DNA of 63,844 nucleotides, filler included, from Dimargaris cristalligena (lineage: Eukaryota): assembly GCA_003614675.1 (NCBI GenBank). It is 20 parts of 20 records of this genome, joined end to end, with 100 filler letters (N's around TTAATTAATTAA, not from the genome) between each part and the next. Parts side by side here need not be neighbours in the genome. Positions count along the whole stretch, not along the records: positions 54,438 to 57,509 come from ML004040.1; 19 more parts are not named here. One strand, given 5' to 3'. Within the stretch, counting starts at the first letter, position 1. Each line of letters opens with the position of its first letter. Shown here in pieces: positions 54,583 to 57,509 of the stretch. The translations under genes and the position numbers were made by a program. The notes below the pieces were generated by a model. The model was not told where the DNA came from, did not search any database, and was given only the letters and a program-made list of their open reading frames with translations.

Positions 54583-57509
54583 ATGGAAGAAGACCATCCC
54601 CCCATGACCATAGACCAGGTTGTCCTTGGACTCCAATCTATGGAACAGGTTGCTTTGAAGCATCAAGCGTAAACCCAAGAGATTGGGGATGCCTTGAAGA
54701 GCCTCATGGAGCATGTCTATCAGCCCAAACTGATACCACAGCCAGAACCCTAGCCCCAGCCCCAGCCTCCATCCCAATATATGCCCAAGTCTAAGTATAG
54801 AGGCCCAGACTTGCCCAAGTTTGCTGGCCACCTGCAGGATGACACCACTAGTTGGTTGAGAACTACCAGAACTTACTTGGATTTGTTGCACATGCCTGCC
54901 GAAGAGGAGGTTCCAGCTTTGTCAATGTTTCTTGTAGGTACAGCTCACACGTGGTACTATGAGAAGCTGCACCTGAGTGCTAAGACTAGTTGGGATCTCT
55001 TTGCTCCCATGTTCAGGGAGCAGTTCTCATTCTCCCACAATCCTGTGTGGATCTGAGATCAGTTCAGGAACTTGAGCCAGACTGGAGGTGTCCAGTCATA
55101 TGTCACCAGTTTCACCAACCTCCTGGCCAAGTGCCCCGAGATGCATGAATATGACCAACTTGCTTACTTCATCCAAGGCCTCAAACCCTGAATCCTTTCC
55201 CATGTGGCTGCTCAGCTTCACACATCAGTGGAGATGGCCATCAAGAGTACATTCACTTTTGAACAGGCCACCTTCAAGAACATGACCCCAGGCTTCCAGA
55301 AAAACTTCCAGCCCAGGCCTCCCAACAACCCTATCCCTATGGACCTTGGTGTACTCAACAAGCTCTCACCAGCAGAATGTGAGTCTCTTAGTAAGAAGGG
55401 TCTCTGTTTCAGATGCAGGACTGGCCACCACTTAGCTCGTTTCTGCCCAGTCCATCCAAGTGTGAATGTCATGGAAAATAAGCAGGGGACCCTCTCACAG
55501 CATGAGTCAGAGGTGTCCCACTAACATGACCTGTAAGACCCCCCTTTTTACCATCTACTTCATCCATAATACCCCCTAGTTTATCCCCTTCCTTACCTCT
55601 TATTCCCTCTAAAAACCTTACCTCTTATTCCCTCTAAAAACCCAAAAACATCAGAAAACCCCCCTAAACTAAACCAAAACTTAGTCCCCCTTAGTCCCTT
55701 AGTTGTTATCCCTCATTCCAAACTTACCCCATTCATTATTAGCCCCCAATTAGGCCACAGTGGTGATGTTGGCATTAATTTACCTTGTTCTACTGATATT
55801 ACTTTATTTCCCAACACACCTGTCAAAGTCCCCTCTGGACTTTCCTTTATTATCCCTGCCCATTTCTATATTCAATTATTCCTAAGATCTAGCATTGCTA
55901 GCTTAGGTATTATTCTTTCAGGAGGAGTTATTGACACAGGTTACAGAGGTGAAATCCTTTTTATTTTGATAAATATCACCTCCTCAACCCTCTCCTTTAA
56001 GAAAAACACTTTCCTTGCCCAGGCTATTCTTCTCCCTACTTTGTCCTACCACCTCACCCCTGCTAAGTCTATCTCAACCAATACTGCCAGGAACACCCAA
56101 GGCTTTGGTTCCACTGACCATGTCCTCCTCACCACCAGCCATGACACCCACTCCTCAGAACCAACCACAGCCCCCTTGTTCACCCTCACTGGCCTCATTG
56201 CTGGCAAAGCTGTCAAAGTCCTATTCAATACTGGTGCTTCATGCAACTTTATCTCCCATGCCTGTGCCCAGCTCTGCCAACTGCCCCTACAACAGACTAC
56301 CCACCAACGGCTGGTTAAAGCAGCCAATAACTAAAATATCCAGATCAGGCATTTCTGTGCCTTCTCCCTGACTATCAACCAGACACCCCTGGAACTTTCA
56401 GCCTTTGTCTACTTTTACCTAGACTTTGATGTCATCCTCAGCCAACCCTGGATCCTTGAACACCAACCACTGCCGGACTGGACCAAGATGACCCTCTTCT
56501 TACCCAAGACCTCCCAGACCCTGGCTGCCACTGACCCAACCAAACCATAGAACCCCAGCCTGTCCCTTATCTCTACCAAACAGCTGGGTAGAGAACTCCA
56601 CAATCATAACCAGGATTCCTTCCTCCTTGTCTTATTTGAACCCATGGCCACCACTGACCCCCTGACCCAGGCACCACCAGAACTCAGAGAACTACTCCAG
56701 AAATTCAGCATCACTGTCTTTGGCCCCCTTCCACCTGGCTTTCCCCCTGCTAGAGCCATTGACCACCACATAGACACGGGCACCTCTGCACCTATGTTCA
56801 AACTCCCCTATTGGCTCTCCCAGCCTGACCTCCAAGAACTCCAGGCCCAACTCTCAGACTACATGGAGAAGGGCTGGATCAGACCTGGTGCTTCCCCCTG
56901 GAGCTCCCCTGTCATCTTTGTTCCTAAGAAAGATGGCACTAGGAGACTATATATTGATTACAGGGCCCTAAATAAGGAAACTGTGAAAAATAGATATCCC
57001 ATCCCAGATGTCACCGAATCCTTTGCCTAACTCTTAGGCAGTACCATTTTCTCCAAGATTGACCTTAAGACTGGCTACCACCAGATCCAAATCCACCCCC
57101 CAGATGTTCCCAAGATGGCTTTCAGCACCAGGTATAGCCAGTTTGAGTTCCTTGTCATGCCCTTTGGCCTCACCAATGCCCCCGCCACTTTACAAACCCT
57201 CATGAACAACATCCTCCGGCCCTTCCTCAACAAGTTTGTGATGGTGTACCTTGATGATATTCTCATTTTTAGCAAGGCCAAGTCCGACCATGTCCACCAG
57301 GTCCTCCAGACACTTCAGAAACACAAACTTGTAGCCAACATGAAGAAGAGTGAGTTTGGCTGTACCAAGACTGAGTACCTAGGCCACTTTGTCTCTACCA
57401 CTGGCATTGAGGTTGACCCATCCAAGACCCAGGCCATGACCAATTTCCCAGTTCCCAAGGACATCCACCAGCTCAGATCCTTCCTTGGCCTTACCAACTA
57501 CTACAGGAA
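54583..57509 (+). mobile_element. Ty3/gypsy LTR retrotransposon, decayed: Gag(CCHC)-dUTPase-protease-RT, 3' partial
   Basis: Gag (LPKFAG, FLVGTAHTWY, CFRCRTGHHLARFC), dUTPase motifs I-V, protease VLFNTGASCNFIS, RT ([52 protein letters not shown]). In-frame stops scattered throughout. Confidence 0.97.
55729..56118 (+). CDS. dUTPase domain within the Ty3/gypsy polyprotein
   Basis: Same frame as the protease: GDVGINL (motif I), RSS (II), GGVIDTGYRGEI (III), AQ (IV), RNTQGFGSTD (V). Confidence 0.93.

Follow-up and report, generated by a model that had tools for sequence, protein, structure and literature searches.

Fungal Ty3/gypsy retrotransposons bearing a dUTPase were published between 2008 and 2010, and one of them was reported to carry the domain at the N-terminus of Pol (PMC2864245, excerpts). 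This element, PosPlaTy3-3 of Postia placenta, is described in the same excerpts as a chromodomain Gypsy element whose Pol begins with the dUTPase (PMC2864245), which is taken here to mean ahead of the protease. In Tmt1 of Tuber, the Phanerochaete chrysosporium elements, PosPlaTy3-5, the rotifer elements Juno, Vesta and TelKA and planarian giant gypsy elements, all of the Ty3/gypsy class, the available text of the sources places a trimeric-type dUTPase in-frame in Pol (PMC2864245, PMC5408684, PMC6431247). Within these sources, Dikarya, rotifers and planarians supply the cases in which the anatomy of the element has been described, and the authors of PMC2864245 proposed that dUTPases were acquired independently from different sources. 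Betaretroviruses encode an NC-dUTPase fusion in pro (PMC4531489, in part). In addition, dUTPase Pfam hits were found to be co-enriched with retroelement domains in Entomophthora muscae (bioRxiv 10.1101/2023.09.13.557621) and in Glomeromycotina (PMC11878562), as far as the accessible parts of both reports go.

The window, a stretch of 63,844 nucleotides from the zoopagomycete Dimargaris cristalligena, consists of unplaced contigs of ~3.1 kb strung together through N/TTAATTAATTAA linkers, and the sequence flanking the element belongs to other contigs. The whole finding lies inside one stand-alone, unplaced contig of 3,072 bp (54438-57509, no strand assigned), with N44-TTAATTAATTAA-N44 linkers on either side. 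With a probability of roughly 0.85, judged from the sequence, this contig carries a degenerate, 3′-truncated member of a chromovirus-like family of Ty3/gypsy LTR retrotransposons in which a dUTPase is located directly N-terminal to the protease; the labels “LTR retrotransposon” and “chromovirus” are based on gag, PR and RT homology over 3 kb. Translation revealed a single reading frame from 54487 (gag ATG at 54583) to 57507 without frameshift and, combined with Pfam, the order gag/NC, linker, dUTPase, PR and RT in that one frame, bearing out the original prediction of a Ty3/gypsy-type element in which a dUTPase separates the CCHC knuckle from the protease. The end of the contig (57509) falls inside the RT, hence the element is a 3′-truncated copy, whose RNase H, integrase, 3′ LTR and chromodomain, if it has one, would lie past this end. 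Upstream of gag, the leader (54438-54582, plus strand) has a GC content of 0.345, with a strongly AT-rich stretch over the first ~60 bases. These 145 bases yielded no assignable LTR or primer-binding site, and the contig has neither the 3′ end nor a second LTR. None of the 8 ORFs in the other frames or on the contig's minus strand matched Pfam; Rfam gave no match on the contig, and neither tblastn nor blastn detected a further copy of the element in the window.

On the plus strand, gag (54583-55524) extends from its ATG to a TAA at 55522 and is interrupted by in-frame stops at 54670, 54751, 55054 and 55189. It matches Retrotrans_gag at 54922-55188 (E 2e-12) and Ty3_capsid (E 3.5e-7) in Pfam, and a nucleocapsid-type CCHC zinc knuckle (CX2CX4HX4C; 55405-55446, plus strand) was read from the translation and sequence; a gag capsid domain followed by such a knuckle is as expected of Ty3/gypsy elements. 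The linker that comes next (55525-55740, plus strand) is Pro-rich and G-poor (G 4.4% over nt 55525-55728), with in-frame TAA codons at 55534 and 55567, and contains a perfect 25-bp tandem duplication (2.1 units, 55591-55642) whose unit is not a multiple of 3. This duplication, together with three in-frame TAA codons, obscures the ancestral gag-pol frame relationship. The duplication also prompted the consideration of a −1 frameshift at the gag-dUTPase junction, which was rejected for want of an open overlapping frame, as the −1 frame has stops at ~55503 and ~55527, flanking the gag stop. Gag, dUTPase, PR and RT all lie in one frame, and not in the betaretrovirus-type gag-pro arrangement with its −1 frame.

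The trimeric-type dUTPase (55741-56115, plus strand) covers positions 5-128 of the 129 in the PF00692 profile. The profile search that had been proposed for this segment gave a match at E 1.3e-20, with 74 bits against a cut-off of 22, at residues 58-182 of the stop-free ORF 55570-56331; the read-through translation with X at stops matched PF00692 again (E 2.4e-19). Among solved structures, phmmer matched 65 distinct sequences of dUTPases (E<=1e-3), led by chain 1f7d_A (“POL POLYPROTEIN”; E 6.5e-17), which we take to be the feline immunodeficiency virus dUTPase. In the protein library, 13,797 proteins match the dUTPase at the same threshold (phmmer, E<=1e-3). The dUTPase motifs quoted in the original prediction, defined here partly after PMC4531489, can all be located, and motifs 2 to 5 are canonical: RSS, GVIDTGYRGE (motif 3, 55924-55953), AQ and R...GFGST (motif 5, 56089-56118), all on the plus strand. 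Motif 1 (55762-55782, plus strand) is altered: Asn (AAT, 55777-55779) replaces the conserved Asp kept in 13/13 other rows of alignment A1, and Val stands for Ala. The Asn and Val may reflect either the decay of this one copy or a trait of the family.

Downstream, the retroviral-type aspartic protease (RVP_2; 56176-56502, plus strand; E 6.8e-10) contains an in-frame TAA at 56332, and its active-site triplet reads Asn-Thr-Gly (56227-56235), where a second copy of the family, P0156, has Asp-Thr-Gly. The reverse transcriptase (RVT_1; 56920-57509, plus strand) matches Pfam at 56920-57387 (E 3.5e-30), carries YLDD at 57247-57258 and is associated with in-frame stops at 56548, 5′ of the RT, and at 57028, inside it. 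An aspartic protease that precedes an RVT_1-type RT with YxDD is again the Ty3/gypsy pattern. In total, the element has 10 in-frame stops (six TAA, two TAG and two TGA). With these stops, and with Asn in place of Asp both in the active site of the protease and in motif 1 of the dUTPase, the present copy is dead and incapable of the proposed dUTPase role. P0156 covers 3 of the 10 stop sites, where its residues are Q, R and Q. The CpG observed/expected ratio is 0.08 on the contig of the element versus 0.62-1.08 in gene-bearing contigs, a near-total loss that points to decay via deamination of methylated cytosine. As a separate observation, four other contigs of the window are CpG-poor; the ORFs of three of them are free of Pfam matches, and the matches in 29049-32146 correspond to a Ty1/copia fragment.

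Two annotated D. cristalligena proteins match the element, in agreement with the expectation that its host is an early-diverging fungus. The first, P0271, is 94% identical, is located on a 3,072-bp contig and corresponds to a spliced reading of the element's own contig. The second, P0156, is roughly 85% identical to the element and is located on a separate 2,390-bp contig. Its gag is identical at 104 of 113 positions, and its dUTPase motifs 4-5 run straight into a protease with an intact DTGAS (110/132 identical, 83%); as P0156 is a spliced gene model, this is certain for the C-terminal ~45 dUTPase residues only, and the domain may be incomplete there. The recurrence of the same dUTPase-PR junction in P0156 implies that the dUTPase is a feature of the family and neither a one-off insertion nor an assembly chimera. 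It had been anticipated that other copies lacking the domain would speak against the element, and P0156 retains part of the dUTPase. An artefact, in the form of an assembly chimera or of a host dUTPase gene lying beside a retroelement fragment, is highly improbable. Such an origin would suit a contig that is a short unplaced piece, the abrupt change in composition at ~55530 and the public gene models, which skip most of the dUTPase on both the element's contig and the second copy. However, the dUTPase shares its frame with gag, PR and RT and lacks a separate start or stop, the junction is found again, 83% identical, on another contig from another annotation, and it aligns collinearly with P0277 over both dUTPase and PR (68/227 identical, E 6e-28), while ten other polyproteins share the dUTPase-PR order.

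These ten polyproteins (P0015, P0018, P0023, P0277, P0295, P0302, P0305, P0329, P0335 and P0338) carry the dUTPase-PR(-RT) order among the 15 Ty3-type dUTPase polyproteins that were scanned, of which 3 have the order PR-dUTPase-RT. Where present, gag and/or a CCHC knuckle lies upstream in the ten, as in the Dimargaris element. However, the dUTPases of P0329 and P0277, the two compared pairwise, are only ~30% identical to that of the Dimargaris element, and in free RT trees the seven of the ten that have sufficient RT form two groups apart from it. The supposed novelty of the arrangement was not upheld, considering these 10 of 15 polyproteins and PosPlaTy3-3, already described in the accessible part of PMC2864245, which at the same time confirms the earlier statement that dUTPase-bearing gypsy elements had been reported from Dikarya. 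Hence the arrangement is already known from other fungal and environmental elements, to which the Dimargaris element adds one more case. The resemblance to PosPlaTy3-3, compared by its partial description only, lies in a fungal Ty3/gypsy element with an N-terminal Pol dUTPase, the host being a basidiomycete in one case and a zoopagomycete in the other. In the rotifer and planarian elements and PosPlaTy3-5, as far as they are described, the dUTPase sits between PR and RT, whereas it sits between NC and PR in the Dimargaris element. The Entomophthora muscae and Glomeromycotina cases are alike in that the counts for these early-diverging, non-Dikarya fungi list PF00692 alongside gag, CCHC and retroviral protease domains; in the parts of these reports that are available they are proteome-level domain counts, whereas the domain order was read directly in the Dimargaris element.

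Betaretroviruses, as partially described, share with the Dimargaris element the order NC, dUTPase and protease and a presumed role in keeping uracil out of cDNA. Betaretroviruses have an env gene and translate pro after a −1 frameshift, whereas gag and dUTPase of the Dimargaris element lie in one frame as it stands. Furthermore, the dUTPase itself has no special betaretroviral likeness: chain 2d4l, presumably the Mason-Pfizer monkey virus dUTPase, matched at E 9.3e-6, more weakly than 1f7d (6.5e-17) or a cellular enzyme (6.5e-15).

The affinity with Ty3/gypsy elements is broad, since 4,744 of 8,000 scored candidates match at E<=1e-3, the matches listed being Ty3-type polyproteins; among these listed matches, a chromodomain was counted manually in 55 of 120. 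The original prediction also proposed an independent capture of the dUTPase. In its stricter form, a fairly recent capture by the Dimargaris lineage from an AT-rich outside donor (a retroelement, a virus or another organism) rather than inheritance from an older Ty3 lineage that already bore a dUTPase, this is rather unlikely. In its favor, the careful RT tree pairs the element at 100/95 with P0064, which has a Chromo domain and no dUTPase in Pfam, and then joins both to four Haematococcus lacustris chromoviruses without dUTPase (99/86), while the 13 other dUTPase-bearing Ty3-type rows of the 67-row RT tree are spread over at least five RT groups apart from the element. The dUTPase also scores higher against many stand-alone and copia-borne dUTPases (67-88 bits) than against those of same-order Ty3 elements (20-56 bits), and copia-borne dUTPases are among its best-scoring retroelement matches. 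However, AU tests did not reject a single RT clade of the element with seven same-order elements (p 0.097 on the careful tree, p 0.47 on the quick tree), nor the joining of its dUTPase with 27 other retroelement dUTPases (p 0.67), for which the constraint improved the tree by 7.5 log-likelihood units. The dUTPase trees (153, 121 and 53 rows) lacked resolution in the neighborhood of the element in all three cases: support for a pairing with the 131-aa P0146 (38% identity) fell from 90 to 64, and the 53-row tree separates these two within a polytomy. Neither host DUT1 nor the published Dikarya elements are among the rows of the trees. A whole-library phmmer search for a donor returned no match at E<=1e-30, the best full-length identity being 42-46%. 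Independent capture is thus no more than a possible reading: the nearest RT relatives lack a dUTPase, but the AU tests leave a shared origin unrejected. The dUTPase may stem from an older Ty3 lineage that already bore one, from a different retroelement or from a new capture.

Base composition bears on the same question. As had been noticed, the dUTPase segment is more AT-rich than its flanks, with a GC content of 0.41 versus 0.50-0.52 in gag, PR and RT and a GC3 of 48/125 (0.38) versus 470/775 (0.61; Fisher p 3.9e-6). The shift delimits a compositionally distinct block (55531-55995, plus strand; GC3 0.25-0.40) that comprises the linker and dUTPase motifs 1-3. Its 5′ side is abrupt, and its approximate 3′ edge lies between motifs 3 and 4, inside the dUTPase and not at a domain boundary, which speaks against an outside capture. 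In the block, G occupies 2 of 155 third positions versus 163/775 elsewhere in the element (Fisher p 3.8e-12), TpA rises to 0.097 versus 0.033-0.040 elsewhere, and both CpA (0.06 versus 0.10) and TpG (0.032 versus 0.064-0.079) are reduced. The scarcity of third-position G is consistent with an outside donor; five host ORFs in the window have a G3 of 0.23-0.32, unlike the block, which argues weakly against a recent capture from the host.

Alternatively, the AT-rich block may be native and have accumulated extra C-to-T and G-to-A transitions in a dead copy, through RIP-like or strand-biased deamination, a possibility that we hold tentatively, at somewhat less than even odds. The gain in TpA roughly balances the loss of CpA and TpG, transition-type decay is seen across the whole contig, and three departures from conserved dUTPase residues are explained by single transitions in a manual comparison of the element's codons with alignment A1, two of them in motif 1 (Ala-to-Val and Asp-to-Asn) and one after motif 5 (Gly-to-Asp). 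However, third-position G is nearly gone while C stays at 0.32, and the gain in T exceeds the loss of C, a pattern that symmetric transitions alone do not fit. In addition, the domain still scores 74 bits against Pfam, and, even though the block is the most altered part, no stop is found in the 254 codons of 55570-56331, which is weak evidence as ~2.5 would be expected at the overall rate of the element. A further reading, which we consider unlikely, is that block 55531-55995 is a recently swapped-in foreign module within an otherwise host-adapted chromovirus. A retroelement of a zoopagomycete mycoparasite would in that case have gained a dUTPase anew and independently, with an AT-rich retroelement or another organism as the donor, and a module exchange between retroelement classes would have been caught close to the event. 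Should the unusual composition of the block turn out to be native in every copy, the family would offer a useful case for the trade of enzymatic modules among retroelements.

Returning to the degenerate chromovirus-like element as the preferred reading, the role of its dUTPase can be suggested by analogy with retroviral dUTPases, as presented in part of PMC4531489. In active ancestors, the dUTPase would have been made within Gag-Pol and either freed by the protease or left fused to NC as in betaretroviruses. Its predicted activity would be to hydrolyze dUTP near the reverse-transcribing particle, which could lead to less uracil incorporation and fewer G-to-A mutations in the cDNA. Such a benefit would presumably be greatest where host dUTPase is low.

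The element adds an anatomically described dUTPase-bearing LTR retrotransposon from Kickxellomycotina (Zoopagomycota). It also illustrates that routine gene models hide dUTPases, since the public model for the element's own contig splices the domain out. Among 70 long proteins with a dUTPase, 37 are Ty1/copia-type and 12 are Ty3/gypsy-type polyproteins, and all three insertion positions are present. The occurrence of dUTPases in dozens of copia and gypsy polyproteins suggests that the trait is commoner than the few published papers imply.

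The Ty3/gypsy fragment is confined to a single piece of 3,072 bp (54438-57509, GC 0.479), in which one frame is open to read-through from 54487 to 57507 with zero frameshifts. With X at the stops, Pfam matches on the plus strand are Retrotrans_gag (54922-55188, E 2e-12), Ty3_capsid (54928-55266, E 3.5e-7), dUTPase PF00692 (55741-56115, E 2.4e-19), RVP_2 protease (PR; 56176-56502, E 6.8e-10) and RVT_1 (56920-57387, E 3.5e-30), and a canonical CCHC knuckle is found at 55405-55446 (+). In this Gag-Pol frame, the protease is immediately preceded on its N-terminal side by a complete dUTPase domain of the trimeric type; the domain order of the original prediction is real, far beyond chance. 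The stop-free ORF 55570-56331 alone scores 74 bits against PF00692 (cut-off 22, E 1.3e-20, profile positions 5-128 of 129). The domain matches 65 distinct dUTPase sequences of solved structure at E<=1e-3, the best being 1f7d/1dut, which we take to be the FIV dUTPase (E ~6.5e-17), followed by a cellular enzyme (E 6.5e-15). The structure 2d4l, presumably a betaretroviral dUTPase, scores far more weakly (E 9.3e-6) than the lentiviral or cellular enzymes. In betaretroviruses, dUTPase stays fused to NC (PMC4531489); the likeness to the element is in domain order only, and the presence of gag and dUTPase in the same frame counts against any likeness beyond order. The contig ends within the RT, and RNase H, integrase, any chromodomain and both LTRs lie beyond the sequence at hand. 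On its anatomy, we read the element, with a probability of about 0.85, as a dead, 3′-truncated copy from a zoopagomycete family of chromovirus-like Ty3/gypsy elements that carry dUTPase.

The linker between NC and dUTPase contains a perfect 25-bp tandem duplication (2.1 copies, 55591-55642), whose unit length is not a multiple of three, and three in-frame TAA codons (55522-55569) stand just before it. An ancestral -1 frame for dUTPase-pol, obtained by removing one 25-bp unit, was rejected because that frame is closed across the gag stop.

The window (1-63844) is made of 20 unplaced pieces of 2,966-3,152 bp (~3.1 kb), with lengths falling almost throughout, joined by six-frame-stop spacers of 44 N, TTAATTAATTAA and 44 N (e.g., 54338-54437 and 57510-57609), so that adjacency across spacers has no biological meaning. 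The cyclophilin/SR-rich gene to the left of the element and the kinase-like ORF to its right lie on other contigs and are uninformative on its neighbourhood. No further copy was found inside the window. On the element's contig, Rfam returned no match and none of the eight ORFs in the other frames and on the minus strand matched Pfam; a tRNA-Thr (TGT) at 12387-12461 (-) is the sole RNA gene found in the window.

Dimargaris belongs to the Kickxellomycotina, within the Zoopagomycota. ORF 55570-56331, used as query in a word-seeded search, matched two proteins out of 642 candidates at E<=1e-3, P0271, the gene model on the element's contig, and P0156, a partial model on another contig of 2,390 bp with a different locus-tag series. 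Both are from Dimargaris cristalligena according to NCBI, and the early-diverging fungal host that had been proposed is right. P0156 represents a different, diverged copy of the family (gag identity 104/113), in which dUTPase motifs 4-5 run continuously into a protease with an intact DTGAS (110/132 identical to the element). Being a spliced model, it contains with certainty only the last ~45 residues of the dUTPase; four residues that match where motif 1 begins may represent the domain's opposite end. The dUTPase-PR junction is therefore a family feature, and its recurrence in P0156 makes an assembly chimera very unlikely. In P0271 (151 aa), the intron of the model removes the whole dUTPase together with the linker and CCHC knuckle that precede it, and the gag C-terminus is joined directly to the protease; the annotation hides the dUTPase because the domain is spliced out. 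Domain surveys resting on gene models such as P0271 and P0156, the latter retaining just motifs 4-5, will undercount retroelement dUTPases.

The copy itself is dead and non-functional. It carries ten in-frame stops (six TAA, two TAG and two TGA), its protease active site is Asn-Thr-Gly, and the motif-1 Asp, present in 13/13 other rows of the dUTPase alignment, is replaced by Asn. Observed/expected CpG is 0.08 on its contig versus 0.62-1.08 on 15 of the 20 contigs, which are apparently gene-bearing; four more contigs are CpG-poor (0.10, 0.16, 0.29 and 0.29). Two of the five contigs at 0.08-0.29 are retroelement fragments (54438-57509 and 29049-32146), and the ORFs of the remaining three (3253-6397, 16206-19322 and 25841-28948) have no Pfam match. 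The second fragment is of Ty1/copia type (29509-32044, +; pieces of Pol_BBD, gag_pre-integrase, rve, SH3_retrovirus and RVT_2 by Pfam); it is AT-rich (GC3 0.36-0.41), and no dUTPase separates its protease from its integrase. P0156 covers three of the ten stops and reads Q, R and Q there, corresponding to C-to-T changes, one of them in CpG. Repeat-targeted cytosine methylation followed by deamination is a general principle (PMC13297926), and the CpG loss and stop changes suggest that such methylation and deamination may operate in Dimargaris cristalligena.

The dUTPase segment had looked AT-rich in the original prediction, and its GC is indeed 0.41 versus 0.50 in gag, 0.52 in PR and 0.50 in RT (GC3 48/125 versus 470/775, Fisher p 3.9e-6). 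A sliding GC3 plot resolves a sharp block at 0.25-0.40 from ~55530 to ~56000, covering the Pro-rich linker and motifs 1-3, and GC3 is back at 0.5-0.6 over motifs 4-5. The one unusual feature of the element is this block, which spans the linker and two-thirds of the dUTPase from its N-terminal side and is sharply G3-free: third-position G is 2/155 there versus 163/775 in the remainder of the element (p 3.8e-12), and TpA is 0.097 versus 0.033-0.040. In five host ORFs checked, GC3 is 0.57-0.70 and G3 is 0.23-0.32; gag, PR and RT are alike at third positions, the block is not. Zero stops across 254 codons and a strong G/C asymmetry somewhat favour a module with a different history. A locally heavier dose of transitions is somewhat favoured by the balance between CpA/TpG loss and TpA gain and by three conserved residues altered through single transitions. 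Both explanations still stand and neither fits neatly, as the 3′ edge of the block is not at a domain boundary. The block could conceivably reflect a recent module swap.

With the read-through polyprotein as query, 4,744 of the 8,000 candidates that were scored reached E<=1e-3. The 120 matches listed are Ty3-type polyproteins, those named being from plants, charophytes and Haematococcus (33-51% identity); by manual count, 55 contain a chromodomain. Only three of these 120, P0015, P0018 and P0023, contain PF00692, in the same dUTPase-PR-RT order as the element; their query coverage, 58-59%, is the top value among the matches listed. A profile built from the element's dUTPase and 13 near matches, run on proteins no shorter than 542 aa, had 70 matches at E<=1e-5, by manual count 37 of Ty1/copia type (found within P0272-P0333) and 12 of Ty3 type by domains. 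Several of the top scores to the element's domain from labelled retroelement dUTPases belong to copia-borne ones (79.7 and 71.3 bits), and same-order Ty3 dUTPases score 20-56 bits. The element is collinear with the polyprotein P0277 across dUTPase and PR (68/227 identical, E 6e-28).

Among 15 Ty3-type polyproteins scanned, dUTPase lies before PR in ten, between PR and RT in three and after integrase in two, making NC-dUTPase-PR the commonest order in this small sample. With three fragments, P0200 (integrase C-terminus then dUTPase), P0260 (dUTPase-RT) and P0132 (dUTPase-integrase), all three published dUTPase positions recur in public data. In Postia placenta chromoviruses, these are the amino-terminus of Pol (PosPlaTy3-3), its carboxyl-terminus (PosPlaTy3-4) and between PR and RT (PosPlaTy3-5); the same source points to cases reported before in Phanerochaete chrysosporium and Tuber melanosporum (PMC2864245). 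Rotifer and planarian elements have dUTPase between PR and RT (PMC5408684, PMC6431247). For non-Dikarya fungi, the literature searched holds proteome-level dUTPase counts only, for Entomophthora muscae (bioRxiv 10.1101/2023.09.13.557621) and Glomeromycotina (PMC11878562). No paper on a dUTPase-bearing element in Dimargaris or Kickxellomycotina was found in this search, which covered few subscription journals.

By analogy with retroviral dUTPases, an active element would translate its dUTPase within the polyprotein; the enzyme would trimerise and lower dUTP near the reverse-transcribing particle, which could limit uracil and G-to-A changes in the cDNA, mainly where host dUTPase is low (PMC4531489). 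G-to-A changes occur in dUTPase-defective lentiviruses (PMC4531489).

No donor of the dUTPase is visible: a whole-library search gave 13,797 matches at E<=1e-3, of which 781 reached E<=1e-10 and 0 reached E<=1e-30, with full-length identities that at best lie in the low-to-mid 40s%. The domain is too short to help, and dUTPase trees with 153, 121 and 53 rows left the element's position without resolution. The 53-row tree unites 27 retroelement dUTPases with support 92 and leaves the element outside; forcing it into this group, named after the tree was seen, improved the log-likelihood by 7.5 units over the free search (p-AU 0.67). At least 250 aligned RT residues were available for 113 of the 120 listed matches; RT trees kept the 55 best by RT score plus dUTPase-bearing rows, and 57 were dropped. 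Neither the Dikarya elements already described nor the host dUTPase were among the rows. The 67-row RT tree splits the other dUTPase-bearing elements among no fewer than five separate groups, a scatter that, together with the element's pairing with a dUTPase-less chromovirus, suggests repeated gains. Joining the element and seven same-order elements as one clade was not rejected by the AU test, either in this quick tree (log-likelihood 2.9 lower, p 0.47) or in a careful 63-row tree omitting the long-branch dUTPase rows P0291, P0323, P0334 and P0260 (28.6 lower, p 0.097). The domain order and fungal host of the original prediction hold, and its interpretation is supported in part; independent acquisitions from different sources had already been proposed (PMC2864245), the AU test lets a shared clade stand, and we regard independent capture by the Dimargaris lineage as rather unlikely.

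In the careful tree, the element pairs at 100/95 with P0064, a 1,425-aa chromovirus lacking dUTPase by Pfam (55% RT identity), and the pair joins four Haematococcus chromoviruses at 99/86. The fungal RT (56551-57507) thereby groups with P0029, P0053, P0089 and P0116 of the green alga Haematococcus lacustris, which, in a small and word-seeded sample, recalls the fungus-plant spread of Tcn1-like chromoviruses (PMC2864245).
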